Notes under the pieces: model-generated
Seen by the model: only the letters and a program-made list of their open reading frames with translations
Databases searched by the model: none
Told to the model about the DNA's origin: nothing
Program-made: the position numbers and the translations under genes
In this document: positions 8,541 to 50,145 of the stretch, piece by piece
How positions within the stretch are numbered: position 1 is the first letter of the stretch
How the letters are laid out: each line of letters opens with the position of its first letter
Virus record (IMG/VR): IMGVR_UViG_3300045988_076157
Location: 1 to 52,063 of that record
Source: a virus
Strand: one strand, 5' to 3'
DNA: 52,063 nt

Positions 8541-8905
8541 CTAGTCACCTCCTCTGTGGTTATTCCCAAAAGTTCAAGAGCAGCTTTGTACTCAGCAGCT
8601 TCTGCTTTTGCTTCCTCCAGGGCCTGTTCATCACTATCTGTTAGGTAAGGACGTCTTAAAGATACCCGTATTGCATTCCCATCGGACACCTTTTCCACCC
8701 CAACCAATTCAGTGTAGTTGAGATAGACGATGGAACTTTCTCCTGCGGAATAGGTTATTTTCTTAATACTGTTTGAGTCCGAGAATATCTCTAGAGCCTC
8801 CTTCAAAGTTATACCCAGCAAGTCTGCATACAGGGTGCCTGAAGAAGCGAGTCCACAGAAAGAACAATCATAAGTATTGGCTTCATCCAAGATGATTTTT
8901 GGCAT
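8537..8905 (-). CDS. Hypothetical tail-region protein ending in the motif YKAALELLGITTEE
   Basis: RBS AAGGGGGTG. 122 aa. Confidence 0.7.
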   Translation of the reverse strand: MPKIILDEANTYDCSFCGLASSGTLYADLLGITLKEALEIFSDSNSIKKITYSAGESSIVYLNYTELVGVEKVSDGNAIRVSLRRPYLTDSDEQALEEAKAEAAEYKAALELLGITTEEVTR

Positions 8906-8917
8906 AGTTTCACCCCC

Positions 8918-10633
8918 TTAATATCGTACATACCCATTGGAAAGGTATAGAGACTCGCCTTTCAAGTTGATTCCCGCAATTGCACTAACAATGTTCACTA
9001 CCAACTTATCAATAGTAGCACTACCAGCAAGAAGTTTGTTTGCTTCTATGATATCTGCAAAATAACCGTTGATTGTGCTATTGCAAGTTGTTGTGGCAAC
9101 GCTTCCACTTGTCAGATGTCGGTTGACAATTGCATCTGTAGCAATGTTTCCACCATCAACAGCATAGCTTCCGATCTTATCGTTAGTGACCGAACCATCG
9201 TAAATCTTGGAACTGGTTACAGCACCACCGGCCAGACAGTCTGTAGTTACTGATCCCGCTTTAATTGATTCTGCAATAACAGCACCCGCTTTGATAGTCC
9301 CGGTAATATTGGCTCCATTCACATATAGAGTATCAGCGCTAATGAATTTGCCAACGATAGAGCCATCTTGGGTAATGGCTGTTTCATAGGTCTGTCCTCC
9401 ATTTGAAGAAAAGCCAAGACCCCCAGAATTCCATCGCCAAATCTTGGTAGTGGTAGTCAGCTCGGGGGTATCCATTATGAGGATTTCTGTTGGTTGACCC
9501 TCATCATTGCGCTTGAAGATAACATACCCGCCACCTCCCCCGGTAATCCATGCGGTGGCATTCATGATTGCCTTTTGCATGTCAGAACTAGTGGGCATGG
9601 ACTGTATTTCTGTAGTTTGACCTGCTATGGTGTCCGCAATGCTGGTACGAATGTCTCCGATCTCTACAGAGGTGTATCTATCCAACAGTACATCATAGGT
9701 AGTTCTTACGACTTTGGCCTTTGTACTTACTCCAAGTTTAACGAAAACCACGGTAACTTCATCACAGAGGTTTACAGGTTCATCCAACTGATCAAAGGAC
9801 ACCTCTAGAGAGACCTTGGGAACCCCAACCTTGTTGTCTGTGATGTAATACTGAGCAGCGGTTCTCAGCTGATCTTCCGTAGGAGCCTCATCAAAGTTAC
9901 TCGAGAGGTCCAGGGAGAGAACTCTTACGAAGTCAAAGGTACCGGTTACATCAATGACTTTCTCAGGGAGCTGCACTACAGATTCCCCGTTTGTCCAATA
10001 GGGATAAACCTTAGTGTATACAGCAGCACAATTATGGTCTTGTTCCAAAGAGGTCAAGTTCTTGCCATATCGTATCGTGACCCCTTTGTCAGAACCTCTG
10101 TTCTTCCAAAGCTTCACAATAAAACGATCAAACTCATACTCTCCACCATACACGTCAAGTACACTTCCCCGTACACCCCCGAGGAGGGATCTTGCAGAGA
10201 TTGGTGTTATACACTTCAAGTTTGCTGTACTGGTTTTATCGGTCCGATAGATGAACCCCGCATTGCTAGGTATGGAAGTGCTTTGCATTTTCTGAAATAC
10301 CTCAGATAATCCGGAAGCGCTGAACGGGGGAATTGCTACACCAGACAGATCATAGCTGATGTGCTGAGCATACACGGTTACAAACCCGTTCAGAGGTTTG
10401 GTTATGCGGTAGATTCGGAAAGGCTGGGGCTTCTTGTTGGGATTGGGCTTGGCTAGAATGATTCCTCTGTCAGAGAGAGAACCATAATGAATACCTGTGA
10501 CAGGATAGGTCATTGCAAGCTCAAACCCCCCATTTCTCTCTTCCTCAACTACACAGGAGCCTGCATCATTGAGTACTCCGATACCATTGTCGGAAAAGAT
10601 TCTTTCTTGAGAATCATAAAGAATAGGTTTCAT
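8918..10633 (-). CDS. Tail-associated lysin-type baseplate protein (Tal; phage minor structural protein N-terminal / Prophage_tail-like)
   Basis: MKPILYDSQERIFSDNGIGVLNDA...NGGFELAMTYP is the classic N-terminus of this family. The ATG at 10633 overlaps the Dit stop. Confidence 0.85.
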   Translation of the reverse strand: MKPILYDSQERIFSDNGIGVLNDAGSCVVEEERNGGFELAMTYPVTGIHYGSLSDRGIILAKPNPNKKPQPFRIYRITKPLNGFVTVYAQHISYDLSGVAIPPFSASGLSEVFQKMQSTSIPSNAGFIYRTDKTSTANLKCITPISARSLLGGVRGSVLDVYGGEYEFDRFIVKLWKNRGSDKGVTIRYGKNLTSLEQDHNCAAVYTKVYPYWTNGESVVQLPEKVIDVTGTFDFVRVLSLDLSSNFDEAPTEDQLRTAAQYYITDNKVGVPKVSLEVSFDQLDEPVNLCDEVTVVFVKLGVSTKAKVVRTTYDVLLDRYTSVEIGDIRTSIADTIAGQTTEIQSMPTSSDMQKAIMNATAWITGGGGGYVIFKRNDEGQPTEILIMDTPELTTTTKIWRWNSGGLGFSSNGGQTYETAITQDGSIVGKFISADTLYVNGANITGTIKAGAVIAESIKAGSVTTDCLAGGAVTSSKIYDGSVTNDKIGSYAVDGGNIATDAIVNRHLTSGSVATTTCNSTINGYFADIIEANKLLAGSATIDKLVVNIVSAIAGINLKGESLYLSNGYVRY

Positions 10634-11328
10634 AATTTCCACCACCTTGGAGTGATGTTAACTTTTGTTATGTTCCCTGTCCAAGATATTTGGGTTTTAC
10701 CCGCTTTGAGAGAAGGGAACTCCATCGCTGAAATGTTTTTATTCTGGTATCCTGTAGAATCATATGCATTTTGTGTATCACTATCAATAAAGAGAACCCC
10801 ATTTGGGCTAGCCAGAATTGATACAGTCACGTCTCCTACAGTCAATTCAGCAGGTCCTTGTCCTATCACTTCAATTAGAGGCAATGCGGTGTATCCAGTG
10901 GGATTGAGCATCCAAGAGTTTTGAGAGACTTCAAGAACAGATTGTCCTGAGAAAAGAAACGATTGGGGTTGACAATCAAAAGATACTTTAGTTTCATGGT
11001 AGCAGTCTCGATAGTTTTCTATCTCATCAACGGAAGCAACCCTTGCCATACGATAGACTTCAGGGAACCTGGAGTCAACCAGTCGGTAATACCCATCTTG
11101 CTTTAGCCAGGAAAACACTTGATCATCTGAAGTGTTCTCAGGCAACCAATACAGTGTGTACTGATCGGTGTAGCTATCATACACTTTCTCATCTTCAAGA
11201 ATTGAACCCTGTTTCCCTGGTACTGTTTTGGTGGTTATACGGCGGGAGGGAAGCTTCCGGCCGTAGTATTCAGGGAGTATGATTCCCAGAGCATGGGAAG
11301 TCACTCCAGCAAATTCTATCATGTCCAT
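10630..11328 (-). CDS. Distal tail protein (Dit, Sipho_tail-like)
   Basis: Position between TMP and Tal, 232 aa, RBS GGAGGG. Confidence 0.75.
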   Translation of the reverse strand: MDMIEFAGVTSHALGIILPEYYGRKLPSRRITTKTVPGKQGSILEDEKVYDSYTDQYTLYWLPENTSDDQVFSWLKQDGYYRLVDSRFPEVYRMARVASVDEIENYRDCYHETKVSFDCQPQSFLFSGQSVLEVSQNSWMLNPTGYTALPLIEVIGQGPAELTVGDVTVSILASPNGVLFIDSDTQNAYDSTGYQNKNISAMEFPSLKAGKTQISWTGNITKVNITPRWWKL

Positions 11329-26623: not shown

Positions 26624-27208
26624 TCAGAAACTCTCTCCAGAGAGCAGTCTTTTCAGCAGCTGTTCCTTGACTTCTTCAACTGTACCTCGATACTGCGCTT
26701 CACGTTGCTCCATGTCTTTCAGAGCTCTCATAAGACGTCTATTTTCCGCAGCCAAAACCATGTTCTGTTCTTTGAGAGACACAACCAGCTCCTTCTTCAG
26801 AAAACTTGCCTTATTCTGTTGAAGTTGTTCATACCCAGAAAGAACCAGCTCAATGGCCTCAGCCCTATACCGAGATTCAGAATTGATATAGTAACCGTGT
26901 TGCCGTATGGAGGGGAGAACCTCGTCAAATACCCAAGCCTCAAATTTTGTGGCTTCGGGTAGCTTGCTGCGAATAATTAGACGATATACGTCCCCTTCCT
27001 GGATGTACCGGAGATTCTGTACACCGCCTTCAGTCTTGGTAGGGATTAGTTCAGTTTCTCTGCGAATGTGACGCTTAAGAGCTTGTTTTACGTCAGAATA
27101 CCCGAGAGCACGAGCTACATCAATCCCACACATCAAGATTTTGCCATCACGCTCCGCAAAATGAACTTCTCCAAAGAGAGAATTCGTACGAGAGATAATT
27201 GTGTTCAT
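26624..27208 (-). CDS. Bro-N domain protein (antirepressor-like) with a C-terminal coiled coil
   Basis: FGEVHFAERDGKILMCGIDVARALGY...GGVQNLRYIQEGDVYRLIIRSKLPEATKFEAWVFDEVLPSIRQHGYY matches the Bro-N pattern. Start trimmed to the ATG at 27208. Confidence 0.85.
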   Translation of the reverse strand: MNTIISRTNSLFGEVHFAERDGKILMCGIDVARALGYSDVKQALKRHIRRETELIPTKTEGGVQNLRYIQEGDVYRLIIRSKLPEATKFEAWVFDEVLPSIRQHGYYINSESRYRAEAIELVLSGYEQLQQNKASFLKKELVVSLKEQNMVLAAENRRLMRALKDMEQREAQYRGTVEEVKEQLLKRLLSGESF

Positions 27209-27231
27209 GTAAGTTTTCCTTTCATCTATAT

Positions 27232-27261
27232 AAAGGGGGGGTTGAAACGACCCCCCCCTTT
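27232..27261 (-). terminator. G7/C8 hairpin terminator between terS and the Bro-N gene
   Basis: Minus strand reads GGGGGGGG-TCGTTTCAA-CCCCCCC followed by TTTATAT. Confidence 0.6.
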
Positions 27262-27285
27262 CCAAGTACAAGGGAGGAATTCCTC

Positions 27286-27984
27286 TCAGTCGTCTTTCGC
27301 TTTTGCTCGGACTACGTTGATTGTGATAGAGTCATCTCCATCACCCTCTTCAAGCAGCTTTTTCTTCATGTTGAACTCATCCAGACGCAGCTTCATCTCT
27401 CGGCTCATTTTGTCAATTTCAGCACGTTCCTTGGAAGTTACCCATTTGGCACCATAGGCACAGTCAAGGACATGCCTTGCACCGCCCTGACCGTCTCGAT
27501 CATACAAGCGGCTCTCAACATACTCCTCAATACGCTGCCTTGCGTCGTTCAAGACGCGCGCAAAAGTTAGTGTATCATCCGTGTCACAACGCATTTCATC
27601 AAGGATTACATCGATAGCGCCTCCTCTGTACTGCATCATTGTTACAGTAGATAACCCCAAGGCTCTTGCGAAGCCAGAGACCGTGTATGGGCGAACTTGT
27701 ACTCTTACAGGCTTTCCGTTCTCACCCATAACAATCTCACCGTTCTTGTTGAACGTGTAGCCCATACAGCTCTCGAAGTATGCATCGCACTTAGCCTTCA
27801 AATCCTCTACCGACAAAAATAAAGGTCGCTGTCCATTATCCTTGGCAGCACTTGGTCTAAGGGGGAGCCAGATACCTCTGAAGTCTATCTTCACATGCCG
27901 TTCATCAACCCATAGGCTGCGTACAACCGGGTGTTTGGGAGCATCGATCACTACTTTATGAATAAGCTTCGCACTGCCAGTCAC
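27286..27984 (-). CDS. terS: Terminase small subunit (Terminase_2-like)
   Basis: KCDAYFESC...RPYTVSGFARALGLSTVTMMQY...ARQRIEEYVESRL fits the TerS HTH pattern. First gene of the minus-strand arm. GTG start. Confidence 0.7.
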   Translation of the reverse strand: MTGSAKLIHKVVIDAPKHPVVRSLWVDERHVKIDFRGIWLPLRPSAAKDNGQRPLFLSVEDLKAKCDAYFESCMGYTFNKNGEIVMGENGKPVRVQVRPYTVSGFARALGLSTVTMMQYRGGAIDVILDEMRCDTDDTLTFARVLNDARQRIEEYVESRLYDRDGQGGARHVLDCAYGAKWVTSKERAEIDKMSREMKLRLDEFNMKKKLLEEGDGDDSITINVVRAKAKDD

Positions 27985-34623: not shown

Positions 34624-34766
34624 ATGAAAAGGTGTGAAAAGGGTAGGACGGAGCAAGGATAACACCGAGAATCGAAGGAATCCTTGTTCTGTTCACCCGA
34701 ATTTGTGACTTTCTTTTTTCCGTCCGAAGGAGTATACTTGGATTATACCGATTGGAGGTTTTTGCT

Positions 34767-35363
34767 ATGGATTATCAATTTTCTGTCAAAACAATGTCTG
34801 AGTCCCAGCGCATGTTGGCTCTCACAAAAGCCCTTATCATGAGTGGAGTCAGTTTGGATGTGTTTCCTTTGGCGTGGCTCAACGGCACCGATTTCTATCG
34901 TGCTCCCGCATCTAAGCACTTTCATGCTGCCTATTCTGGAGGCCTGTTTGAGCACAGCCTGAATGTAACAGTGAAGTTACTTCAGTTCACCGAAGCCGGT
35001 CTGTGTTCTCCCTGGGGTAGACCCGAAAGCCCCATCATTATTGGTATGCTTCATGACACCACAAAGATCAACCGTTACAAAGCGTACCAGGACATGAACA
35101 CAGTCACTCAGGAAATGGAGACCTTCTACCAGGACAATCCTGAGTATGAGAATCTCGGCGGTCACGGTAACGATTCTGTTCTCAAGCTCAAGAAGGTCAT
35201 GGATCTCATTGAAGAAGAGGAACTGTGTATCAGGTACCACATGGGCGCTTATGAGACAGAGGATTGGGACGGCTTTGATAAAGCTATTCGGAAGTTCCCA
35301 AATGTGCTCTTCACCCACACAGCTGACATGTATGCTTCTAAGTGCATGGAGGTGACTCCATGA
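34767..35363 (+). CDS. HD-domain phosphohydrolase
   Basis: HFHAAYSGGLFEHSL ... MLHDTTK ... GHGNDS fits the HD-superfamily metal-binding pattern. ATG at 34767 after GGAGG. Confidence 0.7.
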   Translation: MDYQFSVKTMSESQRMLALTKALIMSGVSLDVFPLAWLNGTDFYRAPASKHFHAAYSGGLFEHSLNVTVKLLQFTEAGLCSPWGRPESPIIIGMLHDTTKINRYKAYQDMNTVTQEMETFYQDNPEYENLGGHGNDSVLKLKKVMDLIEEEELCIRYHMGAYETEDWDGFDKAIRKFPNVLFTHTADMYASKCMEVTP

Positions 35364-36376
35364 GGAACAAGCCTAAGGATGTTCCATACTGTGGTGTGAG
35401 AAAGGACAGAATTCTCAAAGGAGAGCCTGTGGTAGATCCTGAGATACTCCGGTATCTGTATCAGTTTATTGTAAGACGATACAAGATCCATCTGCGGAAA
35501 GATGTTCAGGGTTTGCCTTCTCCTTGGACAAAGGATCCTGTATTACAAGAATACAGGTTCACCAACGTGAGACGAGAACATGACAGAGAAACCAAGTGGC
35601 TGATCAAGAACATTACAAGCAACCCTGATCTGTCCTATCCAAACAAACTCTTGAACTGTATCTTGTTCCGGTTATACAACAAACATGAGACTTCTGAACT
35701 GATCTCTCAACCTATTCCTTTTGATAAGTATAAGTCTTCAGGGGGGTGGGATCCTGAGTGGTATCGTGCTCTGTTTGAAGCTGCCCAAGCAGAAGATTCT
35801 CACAGGGTGTTCTTCACTGGAGCATTCATTACTGGAGGACTGAAGCGAGCACTGAAATGGTATCTACCCAAGGATGATCCTAAAAACAGCATGGAAATGA
35901 GAATGTTGTGGTTTATGAAAGTCCTCATAGACGATAATGTTGTCAGCAAGATCAAGTCTGCAGTTAACCAAAAAGAGGTGTTCAAAACTCTATGCAGCTA
36001 TGACGGACTTGGGGAGCTTCTGTCTTATCAGATCTTTGTAGATATGACTTACATAGAAGAGTTTCCTTTCAGCGAAAATGAGTTTACTGTAGCAGGTCCT
36101 GGTTGTAAGATAGGACTGAGATTTCTGTTTAAAGACACAGATGGTATGACCCCAGAAGAATGTTTGTTCTGGTTGAGAGATAACCTTGAGTCTATCTTCA
36201 AAAACAAGACCAAGGGGAAATTCAGCTGCGAAGCTCTCTTTACAGATTTGCCTGAGTATGATCGCTGTTTTAATGTCATGAGCTTGGAGAACTGTTTCTG
36301 TGAGTTGAGTAAATATGTGAGAGCTACTAAAGGAACAGGCAGACCCAGAAAGAGATACAAGGAGGTACATGAATGA
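35360..36376 (+). CDS. Helical DNA base-hypermodification-type protein (resembles the 5-hm-pyrimidine DNA kinase helical domain / aGPT-pyrophosphorylase group, tentative)
   Basis: The string PWTKDPVLQEYRFTNVRREHDRETKWL and the later GLGELLSYQIFVDMTY...FTVAGPGCKIGLRFLF recall that group. No P-loop. ATGA overlap with the HD gene. Confidence 0.4.
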   Translation: MRNKPKDVPYCGVRKDRILKGEPVVDPEILRYLYQFIVRRYKIHLRKDVQGLPSPWTKDPVLQEYRFTNVRREHDRETKWLIKNITSNPDLSYPNKLLNCILFRLYNKHETSELISQPIPFDKYKSSGGWDPEWYRALFEAAQAEDSHRVFFTGAFITGGLKRALKWYLPKDDPKNSMEMRMLWFMKVLIDDNVVSKIKSAVNQKEVFKTLCSYDGLGELLSYQIFVDMTYIEEFPFSENEFTVAGPGCKIGLRFLFKDTDGMTPEECLFWLRDNLESIFKNKTKGKFSCEALFTDLPEYDRCFNVMSLENCFCELSKYVRATKGTGRPRKRYKEVHE

Positions 36377-36963
36377 AAACAAGAAATGAGATGAGACGAG
36401 ACAGAACCTTAGCTTGGTTGGTAGTGATTTGCATAATTTTGGTTGCGATTTCAGGAGTAAGTTTGGCGTGCTCTCTTTGGGAAAGCCATAAGAACAATCA
36501 GCCTTTAGATAGAGAGTCTAAGACTGTGTATTCTGAAATAGGAACTCCTCTACGAATTGTCCCCCCTCCCAAGATCATTCTCAGCCCTGATACATCTACT
36601 CCTCAAGCTCCAGAATACGATTATGACTATGTATGTCGTGTAGTTATGGCTGAGACCGGCGGAGAATATAATGAAGATCTGACTCTGGCCGTCTGTCAGG
36701 CTATTATGAATGCGGCTACAGAAAACGATTGGACTCCTGAGGAAGTCTGTATCAATTACAAGTACACAGGACCTCATGACTATGTGAGTGATTTCATACA
36801 AGATATCTGTGACAGAATCTTCCTCTATGGAGAAGTCTATGAGGACTCAGGGAATGCCCAAGTTTTCTACAACCCTTCATATGGACATAGCAGCTATCAT
36901 GAGAGTCAAATCTTTGTGTGTGAGATTGGTGGAGTTCGTTTCTTTGAAAGGGTGGCTGTATGA
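36373..36963 (+). CDS. Membrane-anchored SleB/CwlJ-family cell wall hydrolase (Hydrolase_2)
   Basis: N-terminal TM LAWLVVICIILVAISGVSLA. Catalytic-domain pattern VCRVVMAETGGE...LAVCQAIMNA...QVFYNPS...EIGGVRFF parallels SleB (ARLVYSEARGE...VAAVVLNR...FYNP...IGNHVF). Confidence 0.7.
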   Translation: MKTRNEMRRDRTLAWLVVICIILVAISGVSLACSLWESHKNNQPLDRESKTVYSEIGTPLRIVPPPKIILSPDTSTPQAPEYDYDYVCRVVMAETGGEYNEDLTLAVCQAIMNAATENDWTPEEVCINYKYTGPHDYVSDFIQDICDRIFLYGEVYEDSGNAQVFYNPSYGHSSYHESQIFVCEIGGVRFFERVAV

Positions 36964-37781
36964 TACCTGTATTTGTTCCATCCTACAAGCGTCCCAAGGC
37001 TACCTTACTTGTTCGTTCACTGAACTGGGACTTTCCTCTGTATGTATTTGTACGCAAAGAGGAACTTGAGGACTATTCTTGGATAAAGAAACGTCCTAAT
37101 ACCAAGCTGATAACTTTGAAAAATGTACACGACATCGGTGAGACTCGAGCAGCAATGTTACGATATGCTTCAGTACATGGCATCCCTCGGGTGTTCATGT
37201 TGGATGATGACGTTACACGATTAGATCTGTCCGTATGGGACGAGGAGCGCCGGGTAGTGCGTGCCTCTGGTACGGTACGAGGGTGTCCTGAAAACTGGCA
37301 GGTCGTTCTTGCAGAGTGGGAAAGCTTGTGGGGAGATGAAGCCCTATTTGGTGCTTCTTACAGACCATTCAGTTGGAGCATAAAGAAAAATGCACTCAAT
37401 ACCAATCGGCGTGTTCAACTTCAACAAGCTGTAGGTGTGAATGTGGAGCGCATTGTAGCTGAGGGACTCCGATACTACAGCAATAAAGATGTAGGCAATG
37501 AAGACCTGTTCTTACAACTAGAATGCTATCAACAGGGACTTGAGTGTGTACAGACTCCGATGATACAGTATGATTGTCCCGCTATGGGTGCTGGGAAAGG
37601 AGGCTGTAATGCTTCCGAACTTGGCTCAATTGCTGAGAAGCAACATCGACGCGTGAGGAAATTCCTGAAGGCTTGTGGTAATGACCCCGCAGTCCGTGTA
37701 TCAACTACTCGAAGTGGAGTAGAAAGCATAAAGTTCAACTGGAAAGTGATTGACAAATTGATGGGAGGATCCTATGAGTAA
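36960..37781 (+). CDS. GT-A-like glycosyltransferase (TET/JBP-associated TAGT-like, tentative)
   Basis: IPVFVPSYKRP N-terminus and MLDDDV (DxD) motif. Embedded among nucleotide-modification genes. Confidence 0.45.
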   Translation: MIPVFVPSYKRPKATLLVRSLNWDFPLYVFVRKEELEDYSWIKKRPNTKLITLKNVHDIGETRAAMLRYASVHGIPRVFMLDDDVTRLDLSVWDEERRVVRASGTVRGCPENWQVVLAEWESLWGDEALFGASYRPFSWSIKKNALNTNRRVQLQQAVGVNVERIVAEGLRYYSNKDVGNEDLFLQLECYQQGLECVQTPMIQYDCPAMGAGKGGCNASELGSIAEKQHRRVRKFLKACGNDPAVRVSTTRSGVESIKFNWKVIDKLMGGSYE

Positions 37782-38250
37782 CAAAAGTTGGTTAGATATG
37801 GCCGAAATGTATGCGAAACAGCACAGTGGCTGTAACAAGGTGGCTGTGGGTTGTGCTATTGTATCTTTGACTAGCAACAACGTCTTGGCTTTTGGAGCTA
37901 ACAAAGCCATGCCTGATCTGTGCAAATCCCCCAGGGGTTGTTTGAGGGTTGAGCTGTATGGAGACGACAGCAAGAACCACCGGAACTCTGGTGATTGCCG
38001 AGCTATTCATAGTGAGATTGATGCAATTGCTTCTGCAGCTCGCTATGGGATTTCCTTGAATCGATCCGTGGCATATGTTACACGTTATCCCTGCGAGAGC
38101 TGTGCCAAAGCTTTGATCCAGGCTGGCATCTATGAGGTGTACTATGGAGGTACAGCTGAGATCAGTGATTACACCAGAGCGCTCTTTGAACGATACAATG
38201 TAAGATGTTACCATGTCACAGATTGGCGTGAGGATCTGTCTGACCGATAA
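37774..38250 (+). CDS. dCMP deaminase (ComEB/cytidine-deoxycytidylate deaminase family)
   Basis: Zinc motifs HSEIDAI (HxE) and PCESCAKAL (PCxxC). Confidence 0.85.
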   Translation: MSNKSWLDMAEMYAKQHSGCNKVAVGCAIVSLTSNNVLAFGANKAMPDLCKSPRGCLRVELYGDDSKNHRNSGDCRAIHSEIDAIASAARYGISLNRSVAYVTRYPCESCAKALIQAGIYEVYYGGTAEISDYTRALFERYNVRCYHVTDWREDLSDR

Positions 38251-38262
38251 GGAGGGTTGATT

Positions 38263-38766
38263 ATGGAATACGTTGGGTTGAGTCAAGCTCAGTTGGACAT
38301 TTTGGCAAAGGCTAGAAGCACATACGGTGCTACTGCACAGATCCTTGTATCTAATGAGGAACTCTGTGAGCTGGCTGCGGTGTGTGCTAAGTTCCCTCGC
38401 TATGAGTCTCCTGAGAAAGCTAGGGAGGAGCTCTATGACCGAGCTGTGGATGAGGTAGCAGATGTGATTATCGTTTTGGATCACATCGTGAGCATCTTCG
38501 ATATCAAAGCTGAAGACATGAGAACTCGTATTTCCGGGAAGATTGGTCGTCTGGCCTATTGGCTGAGTCAATCTGAGTCTATGGAAGAGACTACTCTCTA
38601 TCGAGACATACCTTCTACTGATCCAAATCAACTGTCCCTGTTTGATAACCTTGGTTGTCCTTGCGTTGGCTGTAGTTACTACAAGAACTTCCTGGAACTG
38701 AAGATCGGGGGGAAGTGCTATGAATGCCGAGGGACTGGCAAAAACTTCAATCCAAGGGAGGACTAA
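38263..38766 (+). CDS. MazG-like nucleotide pyrophosphohydrolase with a C-terminal Cys cluster
   Basis: LVSNEELCELAAV...DEVADVIIVLDHI fits the MazG EExxE/D...ADV pattern. C-terminus CPCVGC...CYECRGTG. Confidence 0.7.
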   Translation: MEYVGLSQAQLDILAKARSTYGATAQILVSNEELCELAAVCAKFPRYESPEKAREELYDRAVDEVADVIIVLDHIVSIFDIKAEDMRTRISGKIGRLAYWLSQSESMEETTLYRDIPSTDPNQLSLFDNLGCPCVGCSYYKNFLELKIGGKCYECRGTGKNFNPRED

Positions 38767-43456: not shown

Positions 43457-43885
43457 ATGATCGAAGTCAAGAAGGGCGAAACTGTTATCGTCAAGGGCTT
43501 TACCGGTATCAAGCTGGGCGTGTTCGAGGTTTCCAAGGCGGACAAGAAGACTGTTACCGTCATGAAGAGAAACGGTGACGAGATGATCTTTGACCGCAAG
43601 ACTGGCAAGCAGATCAACGTGGAGGAAGGCAAGGAGAAGTATGCCAACTCCCTCATGGAGGATGATGGCAGCTATGTTGCTCCCTCTGCCTCTAAGAAGT
43701 CTAAGAAAGCCTCCAAGCCTGCGACCAAGAAGGCCAAGCCCGAGCCTGAAGACGATGACGAAGATGAGGACGAAGATGAGGAAGAGGAAGTCAAGCCTGT
43801 GAAGAAGGCAAAGAAGTCTGCCAAGAAGACCAAGAAGGTCACTGAGGAAGACGACGATGACGACTTTGAGGACATGGATGACTGA
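43457..43885 (+). CDS. Small-domain protein with alternating Lys-rich and Asp/Glu-rich C-terminal tail (ends DDDDDFEDMDD)
   Basis: RBS AGGAGGA. The tail block KKAKPEPEDDDEDEDEDEE is shared with the 46067-46738 product. Confidence 0.75.
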   Translation: MIEVKKGETVIVKGFTGIKLGVFEVSKADKKTVTVMKRNGDEMIFDRKTGKQINVEEGKEKYANSLMEDDGSYVAPSASKKSKKASKPATKKAKPEPEDDDEDEDEDEEEEVKPVKKAKKSAKKTKKVTEEDDDDDFEDMDD

Positions 43886-43892
43886 TCTCATC

Positions 43893-43909
43893 CGGGGGCA
43901 TTGCCCCCG
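43893..43909 (+). other. GC hairpin CGGGGGC-ATT-GCCCCCG after the acidic-tail gene (no T-tract)
   Basis: 7-bp stem read from the sequence. Confidence 0.4.
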
Positions 43910-44091
43910 CCTCTAATGCAGCTCAAGACTGGTGGGAAAGCCTTTACTGGCGAGTAACTCGGTGTACACCACTCAAAAGTGTACCTCGCTTGAACGGTGA
44001 CAAGCCCGTGTAAATGCAGAGTCAAGGAAAAGCTCAGTAGGAAGAGCATCTGAGGGAGGCCGACTATCCCCGGTGGCTGGCCTCCCTACAC

Positions 44092-44167
44092 GGGACATTA
44101 GCTCAGTTGGTAGAGCATCTGGCTCATAACCGGGTGGCCACGGGTTCAAGTCCCTTATGTCCCACCA
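44092..44167 (+). tRNA. tRNA with anticodon CAU (elongator Met, or Ile2 if lysidine-modified), CCA encoded
   Basis: Manual cloverleaf: acceptor GGGACAT/ATGTCCC, D-arm GCTC-AGTTGGTA-GAGC, anticodon loop CTCATAA (CAT at 44125-44127), T-loop TTCAAGT, 3' ACCA. One C-T mismatch in the T-stem. The G1-C72 pair argues against an initiator tRNA. Confidence 0.85.
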
Positions 44168-44311
44168 CCCGTGCGTGCGCTTCACGGGTTCATTTATGCG
44201 CCTCTTTCCTATAAGCTGACTGGCATAAGAGAGTTCAGAGAAATCTGAGAGTGCAGCTCACTCCCCCAAGGAACGTGCTAGTGTTTGAGACTAGATGCAA
44301 GGAGTGCCCCA

Positions 44312-46066: not shown

Positions 46067-46738
46067 ATGAGCAGAAGAATGAAAGTCGATATGACCAACG
46101 TGGAGAGTTACACCCGTTGTCCCGAGGGTCAGTTCCCTGCCAAGCTGGTCAAACTGGAAGAATGCACCATTCAGGGTTCCGGCGACGACGGTCTGAAGGC
46201 AAAGTTTGAAGTCACTGGTGGTTCTGGCAAGGGCAGCAACGTCTTTGAGACCTTCTCTCTGGGTGAGAAAGCTCTGTGGAAGCTGAAGATGATGCTGGAG
46301 GCCATGGGCATGAAGGCCACCGGCAAGATGACTTTGGATCTGGACAAGCTGGAAGGCAAGTCCGTCGGTATCGAAGTCGTTCATGATGAGTTCAATGGTC
46401 GGAAAACTGCAAAGATCGCCCAGTACCTCAAGCTGAGTGAGCTGGAAGACACTGAGGCTGATGAAGACGACGAAGATGAGGATGATGACGATGAGGATGA
46501 GGAGCCGGTAAAGAAGCCTGCAAAGAAAGCTCCTGCCAAGAAGTCCAAAAAGCAGCCTGAGCCGGATGAGGACGAGGATGAGGATGATGACGAAGATGAG
46601 GACGAAGACGAGGAAAAGTCTGCCCCCAAGAAGTCTTCTAAGAAAGCTCCTGCAAAGGCTGCCAAAAAGTCTTCCAAGAAGGCAAAGCCTGAACCCGAGG
46701 ACGATGATGAGGACGACTGGGAGGACGATGAGGACTGA
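46067..46738 (+). CDS. DUF669-family (SSB-like) protein with a long alternating acidic/basic tail ending DDWEDDED
   Basis: N-terminal domain CPEGQFPAKLVKLEE...KAKFEVTGG...FSLGEKALWKLKMMLEAMG fits DUF669. The tail has three acidic and two Lys-rich blocks. Confidence 0.75.
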   Translation: MSRRMKVDMTNVESYTRCPEGQFPAKLVKLEECTIQGSGDDGLKAKFEVTGGSGKGSNVFETFSLGEKALWKLKMMLEAMGMKATGKMTLDLDKLEGKSVGIEVVHDEFNGRKTAKIAQYLKLSELEDTEADEDDEDEDDDDEDEEPVKKPAKKAPAKKSKKQPEPDEDEDEDDDEDEDEDEEKSAPKKSSKKAPAKAAKKSSKKAKPEPEDDDEDDWEDDED

Positions 46739-46757
46739 TGTCCTCTGATTCTCATAC

Positions 46758-46779
46758 GGGGGAGGGGCAACCCTCCCCC
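46758..46779 (+). other. 9-bp GC hairpin GGGGGAGGG-GCAA-CCCTCCCCC (no T-tract)
   Basis: Read from the sequence, just after the 46067-46738 stop. Confidence 0.45.
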
Positions 46780-46794
46780 AGATAGGAGATGATT

Positions 46795-47733
46795 ATGCTA
46801 TATGACTACAGCATTCCAGGAGACTGCAAAGAGCTAAGAAGATCTATTTTCACAGAGCTGATGACTCCCGATACAAAAACTGGATACATGGACGGGGAAG
46901 ACTATCAACTCATGAGACCATACGCAAAGGAACGAGCACTTGATCTTGAATCCTGTCTATGGCTGGCCTTTCTGTATGGTATTTCCTACTCATGTACAAC
47001 CACAATGCGGTTTCTTGAAGAATTCCCCACTATTGCAGATGTAACTCCTAAACGAGTCAACGCATTTTGGAAAGACAAGAAAGAATCCCTTTGGTTTAAT
47101 CCCGACAAGAAGTACCTCAAAAACAACGATCAAGTTATACCGGCCATTCGGTCTATCTGTGAATTGTCCCATAAAAACTTGAGTGACTACCTTTGCCCAT
47201 TGTTAGAGCAAGGATTTGATGTTACATACAAGGAAATTACCAAGCGTTGGCGTTTCTTTGGTCCCCATGGAGCATACTTGTTCTTTGATGCCCTGTACGG
47301 TATGCAACCAAGCTGGTATTCTGATCCTGAACACCTGGATTGGAAAAACTGTGGTCAAACTGTTGTGGAAGGTATGGCTCATCTACTTTGTGATGATGAA
47401 GCTATACAAACCAAACAATACAACCTGGAACGATACAATCGAATGCTGGATAAACTGGCCAACAGATTCCATAAACCTAAGATTGTCTTGGAGTCCAATC
47501 TTTGTTTCTTCCGCAAGCTGTTCAAGGGTTCCCGATATTTGGGCTATTATGCAGACCGCAACCTGATGGAGTGTCATGCTACAGCTGACATACTGAGGGA
47601 AGATTGTGGAATAGATGTTTGGAAACTGCGCAAAAAGACTACTCAGGATGATCTACGTGGAGAGATACATGGTTGGGACGCCATACGCAAAGAAAGGTTG
47701 AAATTGTTTTTGACTACAGGAGCTCTATCATGA
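46795..47733 (+). CDS. Helical protein, second candidate DNA base-hypermodification enzyme (aGPT-pyrophosphorylase / glycosylase-like, tentative)
   Basis: WRFFGPHGAYLFFDALYGM...NCGQTVVEGMAHLL resembles the G.G.f.a.q...D..y...GPG...G pattern also present in 35360-36376. ATGA-coupled to the P-loop kinase. Confidence 0.35.
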   Translation: MLYDYSIPGDCKELRRSIFTELMTPDTKTGYMDGEDYQLMRPYAKERALDLESCLWLAFLYGISYSCTTTMRFLEEFPTIADVTPKRVNAFWKDKKESLWFNPDKKYLKNNDQVIPAIRSICELSHKNLSDYLCPLLEQGFDVTYKEITKRWRFFGPHGAYLFFDALYGMQPSWYSDPEHLDWKNCGQTVVEGMAHLLCDDEAIQTKQYNLERYNRMLDKLANRFHKPKIVLESNLCFFRKLFKGSRYLGYYADRNLMECHATADILREDCGIDVWKLRKKTTQDDLRGEIHGWDAIRKERLKLFLTTGALS

Positions 47734-48320
47734 GACTTCTTATCAATATCCGAGGATGCAATGGTGCTGGTAAATCTACCATCCCCATGTCTATGCTAGA
47801 TGATCCAGAGATGTTTATTGAAGAGCTCAAGTACAGTGATGGCAAAAGGATCGGTGCATTCACTGTATTCCCATCCTATGGTTGGGTTGCTCTAGGAACC
47901 TATTTCAACAAGACCGGAGGGCTTGATGGTATTCGCAACATGGAATGTACCAAGACCACCCTCTATGCAGCCTTGGGTCTCTACCCTGACTATGATATCC
48001 TCATGGAAGGGATCCTCTGTAGTACAGTGTTCTCTAGCTATTCTGACCTGTTTCACGAGATAGAGAATCAGACCGGCAGACAGATAATGATTCTATCCCT
48101 TCTTCCGCCCCTCGAGGTCTGTCTAGAGCGCATTCAAACTCGGAATGGAGGTAAACCCATTAAAGAAGACCTCGTGGCAGGAAAGCGAAGTTCTGTGGCA
48201 AGGAGCCACGAAAAGTTCAAGCAAGAAGGATTCACATGTATAAAGGTAGACTCTTCCCGAGTCCCTAGAGAAAGAATGCTCAAAGCATTTCTTCAAACTG
48301 TGGAAAAACATCGGAGGTAA
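47730..48320 (+). CDS. P-loop kinase (nucleotide or DNA 5-hydroxymethyl-pyrimidine kinase candidate)
   Basis: Walker A GCNGAGKST near the N-terminus, 196 aa. Context between hypermodification-type genes. Confidence 0.6.
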   Translation: MRLLINIRGCNGAGKSTIPMSMLDDPEMFIEELKYSDGKRIGAFTVFPSYGWVALGTYFNKTGGLDGIRNMECTKTTLYAALGLYPDYDILMEGILCSTVFSSYSDLFHEIENQTGRQIMILSLLPPLEVCLERIQTRNGGKPIKEDLVAGKRSSVARSHEKFKQEGFTCIKVDSSRVPRERMLKAFLQTVEKHRR

Positions 48321-48322
48321 CT

Positions 48323-48658
48323 ATGGACCAGAAAATGGAAATTCATCAGCATCTCTGTGAGAAGATGCATGACCTGTATGAGCGTAAAAACGCTGACTAT
48401 GGGGATAGCTTTGCTCAGCTCCGCAAGCGATATCCAAACTTCGTGTGTATGCGGCTGTTTGACAAGTTAAACCGACTTGACACCATCATCCAGCCGGGGT
48501 ATGAGTGTAAGGTGTCTGACGAGAAGATTGAGGACACCCTGATGGATATTGCCAACTATGCGATCATGGAGCTGACTGAACGCATCGCTGACAGAAATCC
48601 CCCTATATCTGCAAGCAACCTGTATGCAACTTCTATTGATGCAAAGGAGGTACACTAA
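48323..48658 (+). CDS. DUF1599 (nucleotide modification associated domain 1, MazG-related) protein
   Basis: KNADYGDSF...MRLFDKLNRLDTI...EDTLMDIANYAIM fits the DUF1599 pattern. Confidence 0.7.
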   Translation: MDQKMEIHQHLCEKMHDLYERKNADYGDSFAQLRKRYPNFVCMRLFDKLNRLDTIIQPGYECKVSDEKIEDTLMDIANYAIMELTERIADRNPPISASNLYATSIDAKEVH

Positions 48659-48659
48659 C

Positions 48660-49388
48660 ATGTCTGTATTCATTTTCAATGCACAAACGGTAAATGATGC
48701 TTGGGAGCAGGCATTCGGCGCTCTGGCGATCCAGGCTTCTGAGGGCTTTGCTGACACTTCCCGTGATGGCGGAGTGGTTGGTGAGATCACTGATGCTGTT
48801 TTCTGTATCAAGGATCCTACTCGCAACATTGTGACCAGTCCGATCCGAAAGATGCCCTTGCGCTATGCTGTCGGAGAGTTGGCTTGGTATCTGTCCGGTT
48901 CCAACAAGGTCTCTGATATCAGTCGGTTTGCTAAGAAGTGGGTTGACATCTCTGATGATGGTGAAACCAATAACTCTGCTTATGGGTATCGTATCTTCAC
49001 CAAGTTTGGGTTTGATCAGTGGGAGTATGTGAAGTCTCTCCTGATGAAAGACCCCAATTCTCGTCAGGCAGTCATTCACATCAAGAATGCTGATGATACA
49101 CCCACCAAGGACACTCCCTGCACGGTGTATCTCCAGTTCTTCATCCGCGATGGCAAGTTGAATCTGTCGGTACATATGCGATCCAACGATATTTGGATGG
49201 GTGTGCCTTATGACATGTTCAGCTTTTGCTTCCTGCAGATGAAGATGGCTATGGAGTTAGGTGTTGAGATCGGTGAATACCACCACTACGCTGGGTCTCT
49301 GCACATGTATGCTCGAGATTGGGAGACTGCTCAGAAAACTGTGGGTAGTTGTTCCTGCAAGAAGCTCAAGCGTGAAGGAGTGAACTGA
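48660..49388 (+). CDS. ThyA-fold deoxypyrimidylate C5-(hydroxy)methylase, T4 gp42-like, Asp at the base-specificity position
   Basis: Catalytic Cys154 in TPCTVYLQF. MRSNDIWMGVPYDMF aligns ungapped with E. coli [15 protein letters not shown], so N177 corresponds to Asp185 (GAC at 49212-49214). NSAYGY, DPNSRQ and GSLHMY strings resemble T4 dCMP hydroxymethylase. Confidence 0.8.
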   Translation: MSVFIFNAQTVNDAWEQAFGALAIQASEGFADTSRDGGVVGEITDAVFCIKDPTRNIVTSPIRKMPLRYAVGELAWYLSGSNKVSDISRFAKKWVDISDDGETNNSAYGYRIFTKFGFDQWEYVKSLLMKDPNSRQAVIHIKNADDTPTKDTPCTVYLQFFIRDGKLNLSVHMRSNDIWMGVPYDMFSFCFLQMKMAMELGVEIGEYHHYAGSLHMYARDWETAQKTVGSCSCKKLKREGVN

Positions 49389-49762
49389 TGTCATACAACA
49401 GGGTCACCAAAGGACCTGAGCTCATCAAGGTGATGGTCAAAATTCTTGATGAGAATAAGGACGTTCTGGTATGGGATCACTTCTGCTATGCTCCGAAAGA
49501 CCTGTACCTCAAGTTCCTGGAAAACCGAGGTATTGAGAGATTTGAACTGGCAGAGTACCTTCAGCGGTGGTGCCTGTTAGACTTCAATTGCGACTTACCT
49601 ATGACCAGAGCTCAGGACATGACTGTGCTCAAAGAACTGATAATGGACAAATACTCCAAGATCTTCCCGTATCTGTCTCGCCCCAGCACTACAGACAGAC
49701 AGGGTTGGTGTAGAGTTTGGTTGTCCGAACATATGGAAAGAGAAATGAGGAAAAAGAAATGA
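49388..49762 (+). CDS. Hypothetical protein (124 aa)
   Basis: ORF track entry, coupled to both neighbours. Confidence 0.65.
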   Translation: MSYNRVTKGPELIKVMVKILDENKDVLVWDHFCYAPKDLYLKFLENRGIERFELAEYLQRWCLLDFNCDLPMTRAQDMTVLKELIMDKYSKIFPYLSRPSTTDRQGWCRVWLSEHMEREMRKKK

Positions 49763-50145
49763 TTGATAAGACTACTTATGATGAGGATACTTTGTTCCCC
49801 CAGATTGCCGCAGTGGACTTTGACGGTCTGCTTGTAGAAAACAAGTTCCCGGAGATCGGTGAGATCCGTCAGCCCATGTTTGATGCTGTAAAGCAACTTC
49901 AGCAGAATGGTTGGAAGATCATTCTGTGGAGCTGTCGTACTGACGAGATGTTGGCCGAGGCTGTTGCTTTCTGCACGAATCATGGTCTTGTTCCTGATGC
50001 CGTGAATGAAAATCTCAAGGAAGTACAGAAGTATTTCGGTGGAGATACTCGTAAAGTATTTGCCAACATCTATCTGGATGACCGGAGTGCGAACTACCGG
50101 AGCGACCTTGGAGTATTCGCAACTATCCCGCCGGAGACTCTGTAG
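49759..50145 (+). CDS. HAD-superfamily phosphatase (nucleotidase-like)
   Basis: AAVDFDGLL (DxD nucleophile motif) near the N-terminus. 128 aa. Confidence 0.6.
   Translation: MIDKTTYDEDTLFPQIAAVDFDGLLVENKFPEIGEIRQPMFDAVKQLQQNGWKIILWSCRTDEMLAEAVAFCTNHGLVPDAVNENLKEVQKYFGGDTRKVFANIYLDDRSANYRSDLGVFATIPPETL

Follow-up and report, generated by a model that had tools for sequence, protein, structure and literature searches.

A predicted DNA kinase and amino acid:DNA transferase encoded with a putative cytosine-type hydroxymethylase in the virus record IMGVR_UViG_3300045988_076157

The window analyzed here, the whole of the IMG/VR virus record IMGVR_UViG_3300045988_076157 (52,063 nucleotides), very probably encodes a post-replicative base hypermodification system of the kinase-plus-transferase type, as judged from the sequences, families and predicted folds of proteins encoded in a block at 46795-49388. 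The block contains genes for a predicted amino acid:DNA transferase (AADT), a predicted DNA kinase of the 5-HMUDK family, a DUF1599 protein, and a homolog of thymidylate synthase (the ThyA homolog) that by its signature looks like a cytosine-type (dCMP) hydroxymethylase. The kinase and AADT families are known, as is a module like that of phages M6, SP10, and SH-Ab 15599; what is new, on the sequence evidence, is the pairing with a cytosine-type hydroxymethylase. To our knowledge, every characterized 5-HMUDK/AADT pathway is fed by a dUMP hydroxymethylase, and literature searches turned up neither a dCMP hydroxymethylase feeding such a pathway nor phage cytosines modified with amino acids. In comparison with all characterized cases, the difference would lie either in how the substrate is supplied or in which base is targeted, and the evidence leans toward the same chemistry on 5-hydroxymethyluracil (5-hmU) with an unusual supply route.

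The block lies in the right arm of the window, a plus-strand module of replication and nucleotide metabolism that takes up everything from roughly 30 kb onward (coordinates of all features are in Table 1). The open reading frame of the AADT candidate, also on the plus strand, extends from 46789 or 46795 to 47733 (314 or 312 amino acids depending on the start), with a TGA stop at 47731-47733. The ATG at 46795 is preferred to that at 46789 because an AGGAG lies 6 nt 5' of it and homologs start at the equivalent residue; residue numbers given below for the AADT count from ATG 46789. The ATG of the kinase gene (47730) overlaps the AADT stop as ATGA, and the kinase gene, which encodes 196 amino acids including the sequence GCNGAGKST, ends at 48320, 2 nt before the DUF1599 gene (48323-48658). 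The start of the ThyA homolog was placed at ATG 48660, 1 nt past the DUF1599 stop and with AAGGAGG upstream, while a start at 48624 was not favored. The gene layout given in a preliminary description of this DNA, with ATGA coupling, a 2-nt gap to DUF1599, and then a ThyA-like gene, thus agrees with the sequence. Profile assignment, which that description had proposed as a check, gave 84.8 bits for Pfam PF18748 with the kinase, 40.3 bits for PF07659 with the DUF1599 protein, and 96.3 bits for Thymidylat_synt with the ThyA homolog.

The match of the kinase to PF18748 (HMUDK_HMUD1) had an E-value of 7.3e-24, was well above the cutoff of 27 bits, and covered positions 21-178 of the 196 in the profile. 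The same protein scored only 18 bits on the generic AAA_33 model and 1.4e-3 with phrog_761, annotated as a thymidylate kinase, and PDB searches with it gave no informative matches. Over 98% of its length it matched the kinase region of Bacillus phage SP-10 with 46.7% identity, and it shared 47% identity with the kinase of Lysinibacillus phage LysYB1 and approximately 39% with M6-like kinases. SP10 gp186, the kinase domain of gp186 alone, and M6 gp54 phosphorylate 5-hydroxymethyldeoxyuridine (5-hmdU) within DNA (PMC8989533). The assignment of the P-loop protein as a 5-hmdU-type DNA kinase is supported by this kinship, and its preferences for the base and for the polymer are predicted from it. 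Database labels in this family are misleading: PHROG 800 is called 'terminase small subunit', which is wrong, as the family is the fused 5-HMUDK kinase and helical domain, and many GenBank records, including those of M6 gp54 and the SP-10 kinase, bear the same wrong label.

The product of the gene coupled to the kinase is an all-helical protein for which searches with the sequence alone, or with a profile of its close homologs, gave nothing usable in Pfam, NCBIfam, or PDB sequences. It matched phrog_3271, annotated as 'unknown function', at 9.7e-14. Because a direct match to the Pfam model of the family (PF18724, ADDT) is missing, its membership in the AADT family rests on transitive homology. 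Its close homologs matched PF18724 at 1e-5 to 5e-9; those with 50-65% identity scored 27-37 bits, and one with 79% identity (P0004) scored 25.7 bits, just under the cutoff of 26.2. An exhaustive profile search recovered 418 cluster representatives, with metagenomic homologs in the hundreds, and 62 of 95 diverse relatives matched PF18724 (best 1.1e-22), while seven of the 95 matched aGPT-Pplase3. The analysis assigns a predicted function to the PHROG 3271 family, which is missed by the current Pfam and NCBIfam models.

The predicted fold pointed in the same direction. An AlphaFold2 (AF2) model of the protein had a pLDDT of 95.4, and when it was searched against 350,542 PDB chains, as was the model of the second helical protein described below, the top three matches were to 8z2n and 8z2m (probability 1.0, TM 0.51-0.57), followed by helix-hairpin-helix (HhH) DNA glycosylases. 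These two entries are PaMx11 gp46, or PUGT, a 5-phosphomethyldeoxyuridine (5-PmdU) glycinyltransferase, and they were the sole AADT crystal structures recovered in the fold search. Both helical proteins of the window had PUGT as their top structural match. Like the window AADT, PUGT is built of two helical bundles in an all-helical fold akin to that of HhH glycosylases and has a catalytic Cys with a Glu four residues upstream, but the identity between them is only about 11%. Against BFVD, the model matched proteins named 'Amino acid:DNA transferase' with TMq values of 0.69-0.84 and E-values down to 1.6e-8.

The putative catalytic motif was well conserved. E235 and C239 were invariant in 32 close homologs, and C239 was kept in at least 90% of the 95 diverse members. 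The deep AADT profile aligned E..LC with the ETVLC of the AADT in PDB entry 25qc (E 0.78; no other search by sequence or profile reached an AADT in the PDB), and M6 gp51 is identical to 25qc over the aligned ETVLC stretch. The window motif E-S-x-x-C has the spacing of E243-T244-x-x-C247 in PUGT, with the Glu and the Ser/Thr positions both kept; in PUGT, E243 and T244 hold a metal that contacts the thymine O4, and a catalytic Cys and a nearby Glu are reported to be essential in M6 gp51 and ViI gp247. In related IMG/VR loci that span this point, the AADT and 5-HMUDK genes were almost always neighbors (in the exception, L034, a TAGT-like gene lies between them), as they are in LysYB1. Among 50,697 phage records, AADT homologs were detectable in only two phages, both from Lysinibacillus. 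The LysYB1 homolog (M3_0048, at 8902-10821 of locus L001) has 30% identity and continues into a fused C-terminal domain of about 300 amino acids. From transitive profile homology, fold, and motif, the helical protein is classed as a divergent AADT, with transfer activity as its predicted function. The preliminary description had likened the neighborhood to the kinase and pyrophosphorylase-type transferase of thymidine-hypermodifying phages, and the PF18748 match, the identity to SP10, and the AADT family, fold, and motif bear this out.

The predicted hydroxymethylase is one component that sets the block apart. The best PDB sequence match of the ThyA homolog was the CMP hydroxymethylase MilA (1.1e-33), with thymidylate synthases at 9e-22 or worse. 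Three positions, L143, D169, and N177 in the numbering of E. coli ThyA, are diagnostic for thymidylate synthase homologs (PMC13326640): an Asp at N177 indicates cytosine specificity, and an acidic residue at L143 indicates a hydroxymethyl rather than a methyl product. Furthermore, N177D in thymidylate synthase and D179N in the T4 dCMP hydroxymethylase switch the substrate preference in both directions (PMC13326640). The ThyA homolog keeps the catalytic Cys, and its K-D-T-P-C sequence puts an Asp at the L143 position, as does S-D-F-M-C in T4, with the register taken relative to the Cys since MAFFT opens a one-column gap there in some runs. At the N177 position it also has an Asp (VPYDMFSF, compared to LPFNIASY in ThyA and FRNDYAWQ in T4 gp42), as does MilA, and D169 is retained in the motif M-R-S-N-D. 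The Asp signature was found in all 19 of the related IMG/VR loci that include the hydroxymethylase gene. M6 gp58 and the proteins of a ViI-like Salmonella phage and LysYB1 (Spounavirinae) have Asn at N177, a one-residue insertion, and 'NRS' before the motif, whereas in the window clade these are Asp and 'MRS', as in T4 gp42 and the protein of Enterococcus phage nattely. In nattely, the hydroxymethylase gene is one gene from an annotated beta-glucosyltransferase. The nearest homolog from a cultured phage, a protein of Agathobaculum phage AB434P2 that is 60% identical to the ThyA homolog and automatically labeled 'deoxyuridylate hydroxymethyltransferase', also has the Asp. The earlier impression that this enzyme looks cytosine-specific was upheld, with an Asp at N177 as in T4 gp42.

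Three other identities for this enzyme were considered, of which the first two were rejected. A 5-hydroxy-dCMP synthase of the RB69 gp48 type would have Asn in place of D169 (PMC13326640), which is retained here. An ordinary thymidylate synthase disagrees with the acidic L143 position, with the Asp at N177, and with scores far under the cutoffs of the NCBIfam thymidylate synthase equivalogs. A dUMP hydroxymethylase of the SPO1, M6, and ViI type is expected to have Asn at N177, where the window enzyme has Asp. No second thymidylate synthase or hydroxymethylase was found in the window, in which all plus-strand genes from 33 kb to the end and 10 selected open reading frames of the 1-33 kb region were scanned.

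The pathway proposed for these proteins is predicted from sequence, family membership, and fold. The ThyA homolog would make a 5-hydroxymethyl-pyrimidine deoxynucleotide, proposed to be 5-hm-dCMP, for incorporation by the phage polymerase, and a deaminase encoded elsewhere in the right arm would turn some of the pooled 5-hm-dC nucleotides into their 5-hm-dU counterparts. After replication, the kinase would phosphorylate the hydroxymethyl group of the base in DNA. The AADT would then flip the base, with Cys239 attacking C6 and the phosphate being expelled, to give an exocyclic methylene to which a free amino acid or amine would add. The post-replicative chemistry is modeled on the established pathway (PMC8989533, PMC11472151). 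The DNA would carry 5-hmU, as the substrate of the kinase and the AADT, and probably also 5-hydroxymethylcytosine (5-hmC), as a candidate substrate of the TAGT-type glycosyltransferase. No tailoring enzyme dependent on pyridoxal phosphate (PLP), radical S-adenosylmethionine (radical-SAM), or flavin was seen in the window, and so the end product is probably a base with a simple adduct of an amino acid or amine, comparable to those of SP10, PhiW-14, and SH-Ab 15599.

The choice of 5-hmU as the target follows from the kinship of the kinase to verified 5-hmdU kinases, from the kept residues that correspond to O4 metal ligands, and from the M6-like gene set. The deaminase is proposed to act on 5-hm-dC nucleotides because a dCMP-type hydroxymethylase must be reconciled with a 5-hmU-type kinase. 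There is precedent for such an activity: phage enzymes of the dCMP-deaminase family encoded beside D177-type thymidylate synthase homologs selectively deaminate 5m- and 5hm-dCTP, and seven such candidates gave 5-hmdU in DNA in vivo (bioRxiv 10.1101/2024.12.05.627091). Human DCTD is also reported to deaminate 5hmdCMP (PMC10305735). For the full model, in which hm-dC nucleotides are deaminated by the phage enzyme to give 5-hmU DNA that would then be phosphorylated and aminoacylated, the chances were judged to be about even.

The stand-alone HMUDK_hel protein, or aGPT-Pplase clade 1 protein, is the second helical protein of the window. M6 gp55 matched its profile at 1.5e-21, and it has an invariant E310-N-C-F-C314-E motif, the equivalent of which in M6 gp55 is IEHTLCEF. 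A PDB sequence search with the HMUDK_hel profile gave no informative matches. The AF2 model (pLDDT 90.4) again had 8z2n and 8z2m as its top three PDB matches (probability 0.99-0.90, TM 0.39-0.45), with the next at a probability of 0.07 or less. M6 gp55 is dispensable in vitro for the kinase and glycine-transfer steps (Lee et al.), and the HMUDK_hel family, named as a kinase helical domain, may itself be a Cys-dependent base-modifying enzyme, on the evidence of its motif.

The relation between the two helical proteins was stronger at the level of fold than at the level of sequence. BLASTP detected no significant similarity between them, and hhalign of shallow profiles gave an E-value of 0.57, which is not significant. 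With the deep AADT profile, hhalign against the HMUDK_hel profile gave a marginal E-value of 0.09 over 215 collinear columns, in an alignment that pairs FFGPHGAYLFFD with DGLGELLSYQIFVD, CGQTVVEG with GPGCKIG, and E-S-N-L-C with E-N-C-F-C. A BFVD search with the AADT model reached HMUDK_hel and Pplase1 proteins weakly (E 0.96 and 8.7). The models suggest that both proteins have the PUGT/AADT fold, and homology is not claimed at the sequence level. In the literature, the two helical families are classed as clades 1 and 2 of aGPT-Pplase; statements on clades 1-3 here follow Lee et al. (PMC8989533, PMC5889632) and the names used in Pfam. The preliminary description had taken a shared 'G.G...D..y...GPG..G' core as a sign that these are two divergent members of one helical group, and had suggested a pairwise HHalign. 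The core motif by itself is not beyond chance, and the best HHalign result pairs the motifs but is marginal, so that the grouping is supported by the fold and the literature clades and not by the motif statistics.

The closest parallel to the window as a set of genes is Pseudomonas phage M6, whose cluster includes gp51 (glycine:DNA transferase), gp54 (5-HMUDK), gp55, gp58 (dUMP hydroxymethylase), gp59 (HD), and gp65 (dCMP deaminase), and whose product is 5-(2-aminoethyl)deoxyuridine (5-NedU). M6 and the window share an AADT, a 5-HMUDK, a clade 1 helical protein, a hydroxymethylase of the thymidylate synthase family, an HD hydrolase (which in M6 adjoins the hydroxymethylase), a dCMP deaminase, and the E-[ST]-x-L-C motif. 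They differ in that the M6 hydroxymethylase has the Asn of the dUMP type where the window enzyme has the Asp of the dCMP type, and in that the M6 cluster extends to a PLP decarboxylase and radical-SAM tailoring enzymes, both missing from the window, while the window adds the TAGT and DUF1599 genes. The two AADTs are too divergent for direct profile detection. Neither SP10, one of the 5-hmU Bacillus phages, nor the window has PLP or radical-SAM tailoring genes. In SP10 gp186, of the alpha-glutamylthymidine pathway, the kinase is fused to a PF18723 helical domain, whereas the window encodes the two in different genes, 11 kb from each other, with the kinase gene coupled to that of the AADT. Acinetobacter phage SH-Ab 15599, which makes alpha-dapT, also has a two-enzyme system of a kinase and a Pplase2-family transferase with a deaminase and a hydroxymethylase upstream, but its hydroxymethylase is of the dUMP type, it has a dedicated dTTPase/dUTPase, and its transferase takes diamines (PMC13458397).

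On the hydroxymethylase side, the parallels were with other phages. T4 gp42, to which the window enzyme is 28% identical, and the nattely protein have Asp at the N177 and L143 positions and retain D169, and, as in the window, a DNA glycosyltransferase is encoded in the genome. No 5-HMUDK or AADT is annotated in the T4 and nattely gene clusters examined, and neither phage was present, by organism name, among the 406 phage records that matched the window kinase. The mSCD phages (Xp12 group) resemble the window in having a deaminase gene co-located with a D177-type thymidylate synthase homolog, a MazG/PRA-PH-like gene, and PolA, but the mSCD enzymes that have been characterized serve 5mC phages by providing dTTP from 5m-dCTP, unlike the role proposed for the window enzyme (bioRxiv 10.1101/2024.12.05.627091). 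A deaminase of this kind is not known to supply a 5-HMUDK/AADT pathway.

The order AADT, kinase, variable slot, hydroxymethylase was kept in related IMG/VR contigs even as the AADT identity fell to 28%. A deaminase gene followed by a MazG-like gene was found in every related contig that reached far enough, and in one sub-clade this pair was located directly 3' of the kinase gene. The variable slot, occupied in the window by DUF1599, contained in its relatives a TAGT-like glycosyltransferase, radical-SAM/SPASM proteins, FkbM or class I methyltransferases, a Tmk/dNK-like kinase, or DUF2284. Such variety suggests that one phage clade makes several different final bases, and DUF1599 is read as filling an accessory or tailoring slot rather than as part of the core. 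In some relatives, the Tmk/dNK-like kinase is beside the hydroxymethylase and is additional to the 5-HMUDK. Because it is conserved across related contigs, the pairing of 5-HMUDK and AADT with a cytosine-type hydroxymethylase appears to be stable and not an accident of one genome. This clade of gut phages with genomes of roughly 50 kb is represented by 19 or more independent viral contigs and by protein clusters in the hundreds. The window PolA shared 56% identity with its counterpart in a rodent-gut virus and 36% with those of Clostridium perfringens phages, and the nearest cultured relatives point to hosts that are probably gut Firmicutes (Clostridia).

Several observations count against the proposed pathway. 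The AADT itself was not matched by PF18724 even at E-values up to 10, and in LysYB1, the closest cultured relative, its homolog reads G-K-L-C in place of E-S-N-L-C and lacks the motif Glu. Canonical 5-hmU phages also have a dCMP deaminase, which makes dUMP, so conservation of the deaminase is no proof of a role with hm-dC. In the genes scanned, no obvious deoxynucleoside monophosphate (dNMP) kinase was found for hm-dCMP or hm-dUMP. In addition, the selectivity of deaminases for 5mC and 5hmC is polyphyletic and has no defined determinant residues (bioRxiv 10.1101/2024.12.05.627091). One alternative reading of these genes, considered unlikely, has 5-hmC in DNA as the target of the kinase and AADT, giving 5-phosphomethyl-dC and then an amino-acid- or amine-modified cytosine, with the deaminase confined to supplying dUMP from which the host makes thymidylate. 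This would fit the dCMP signature of the sole hydroxymethylase found and of those in the 19 related contigs, the distance of the AADT clade from characterized AADTs (no direct Pfam match and about 11% identity to PUGT), and the presence in the same genome of a TAGT glycosyltransferase, from a family linked to 5-hmC. A mechanism with Cys attack at C6 is also chemically feasible on cytosine, as it is used by the DNA C5-methyltransferases and by dCMP hydroxymethylase. Set against this are the 47% identity of the kinase to the kinases of LysYB1, which has a hydroxymethylase with the dUMP signature, and of SP10, which is experimentally based on 5-hmU, as well as the conserved Glu and Ser that match the thymine O4 metal ligands of PUGT, the parallel between the gene set and that of the thymine modifier M6, and the published precedent for phage deaminases that turn hm-dC into hm-dU nucleotides. 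As a variant, the dCMP hydroxymethylase and deaminase would together feed both a 5-hmC glycosylated by the TAGT enzyme and a thymine aminoacylated through the kinase and AADT, making the genome doubly hypermodified.

A wholly canonical pathway like that of M6 or SP10, in which the deaminase makes dUMP, the ThyA homolog hydroxymethylates dUMP despite its Asp, and the kinase and AADT modify 5-hmU, was judged to be decidedly unlikely. It would fit a parts list equal to that of M6 and the closeness of the kinase to verified 5-HMUDKs, and the label of the Agathobaculum phage homolog agrees with it, though that label is automatic and the protein has the Asp. It is at odds with the reciprocal N177D and D179N mutants that switch substrate preference (PMC13326640), with the clean split between Asn and Asp, in which every hydroxymethylase examined from a known or inferred 5-hmU phage has Asn, and with MilA as the best PDB match. 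It is very improbable that the P-loop protein is an ordinary hm-dNMP kinase, that the helical protein, whether DNA-binding or glycosylase-like, has no catalytic role, and that post-replicative base chemistry is absent altogether. Such a kinase is needed by the T4-type 5-hmC phages and no other was found among the window genes scanned, but the protein scored 84.8 bits on the 5-hmdU DNA kinase model compared to 18 bits on AAA_33 and 1.4e-3 with phrog_761, and relatives have a separate Tmk/dNK-like kinase besides. The coupling of its gene to that of an AADT-fold protein, in which the Cys is invariant or nearly so over hundreds of homologs and the Glu is invariant in the close clade, also argues for base chemistry in DNA.

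Hypermodified thymines, for which the 5-HMUDK/AADT pathway is the known route, protect phage DNA from restriction enzymes and are being mined for enzymes useful in sequencing and biotechnology. The window differs from the known systems also in that the kinase is not joined to its usual helical domain and is coupled to the AADT, and in that the AADT, by its profile scores, is of a subfamily beyond the current curated models. If the deaminase does convert hm-dC to hm-dU nucleotides, this would be a new pre-replicative route, probably in a genome with both pyrimidines modified. If instead the kinase and AADT accept 5-hmC, this would be a new base chemistry and a potential enzymatic handle for 5-hmC labeling.

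Table 1. Features of the window and of the variable cassette in related loci, with the evidence for each assignment
Feature	Coordinates	Strand	Evidence or context
Predicted amino-acid (or amine):DNA transferase, AADT family (formerly aGPT-Pplase clade 2)	46795..47733	+	All-helical; motif E235-S236-N-L-C239
Predicted 5-hydroxymethylpyrimidine DNA kinase (5-HMUDK family), kinase domain only	47730..48320	+	Walker A GCNGAGKST; ATGA-coupled to AADT
DUF1599 / 'nucleotide modification associated domain 1' (Nmad1)	48323..48658	+	PF07659 4.2e-10, 40.3 bits vs cutoff 25; phrog_1485 1.5e-23
Thymidylate-synthase homolog with dCMP hydroxymethylase signature, predicted 5-hm-dCMP maker	48660..49388	+	PF00303 2.2e-27
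Stand-alone HMUDK_hel / aGPT-Pplase clade 1 protein	35360..36376	+	PF18723 6.5e-68, 229.6 bits vs cutoff 25
dCMP-deaminase-family enzyme, candidate 5-hm-dC nucleotide deaminase	37774..38250	+	PF00383 6.6e-17; MafB19-deam 4.6e-15
TAGT-type DNA glycosyltransferase, candidate on 5-hmC or residual 5-hmU	36960..37781	+	PF20691 TAGT 2.7e-13; phrog_842 1.7e-13
HD-type phosphohydrolase	34752..35363	+	phrog_28876 'metal-dependent phosphohydrolase' 2e-23; PF01966 HD weak, 0.017
MazG-like NTP pyrophosphohydrolase candidate	38257..38766	+	phrog_2245 'nucleoside triphosphate pyrophosphohydrolase' 3.2e-11; always beside deaminase
196-aa protein with N-terminal hydrophobic segment	36373-36963		No Pfam match; ATGA-coupled on both sides, between HMUDK_hel and TAGT genes
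BT0820-family HAD phosphatase	49759-50145		NCBIfam 1.2e-25, under its cutoff; downstream of hydroxymethylase in all relatives
Conserved 124-aa protein	49388-49762		No family match; downstream of hydroxymethylase in all relatives
GC-rich hairpin	46758-46779	+	9-bp stem GGGGGAGGG/CCCUCCCCC, just 5' of AADT ribosome-binding site, without a following T-run
Variable cassette, kinase to hydroxymethylase or kinase to deaminase	L006 11527-11991; L007 2642-3304, 3308-3796; L009 11824-12327
Variable cassette, further loci	L010 11460-13992; L012 11456-12923; L024/L028/L031 between kinase and deaminase

Other genes of the right arm may contribute to nucleotide supply or to tailoring. The HD phosphohydrolase gene is ATGA-coupled to the HMUDK_hel gene (overlap 35360-35363), and its product possibly depletes a nucleotide pool. 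The 196-amino-acid protein sits inside the first modification block. The phrog_842 family matched by the TAGT-type protein is annotated as 'beta-glucosyl-HMC-alpha-glucosyltransferase'. The similarity of the MazG-like protein to B. subtilis YpjD (2gta) was weak (E 0.03), and the DUF1599 protein showed no detectable similarity to the MazG-like protein of the window or to PDB chains. Downstream of the hydroxymethylase, the HAD phosphatase could remove canonical dNMP in the manner of a dTMPase.

The hairpin upstream of the AADT gene lies in a region (46736-46800) with a minimum free energy of -27 kcal/mol, corresponding to z = -2.44 against shuffles. It could be an element of RNA stability or processing, or a weak terminator between the gene for a DUF669 protein and the modification operon. 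This DUF669 protein (46067-46738) is encoded directly upstream of the AADT, a position that is conserved in relatives, and it is one of two proteins, with that at 43457-43885, that have long, highly charged C-terminal tails rich in Asp, Glu, and Lys. A single tRNA-Met (CAT) gene at 44092-44167 lies between the gene for an acidic-tail protein and an exonuclease gene, and is overlapped by spurious minus-strand open reading frames (43888-44185). The left arm of the window consists mostly of structural and packaging genes on the minus strand, including those for a BRO-N domain protein and a GP3_package small-terminase-like protein at 26624-27271 and 27286-27984.

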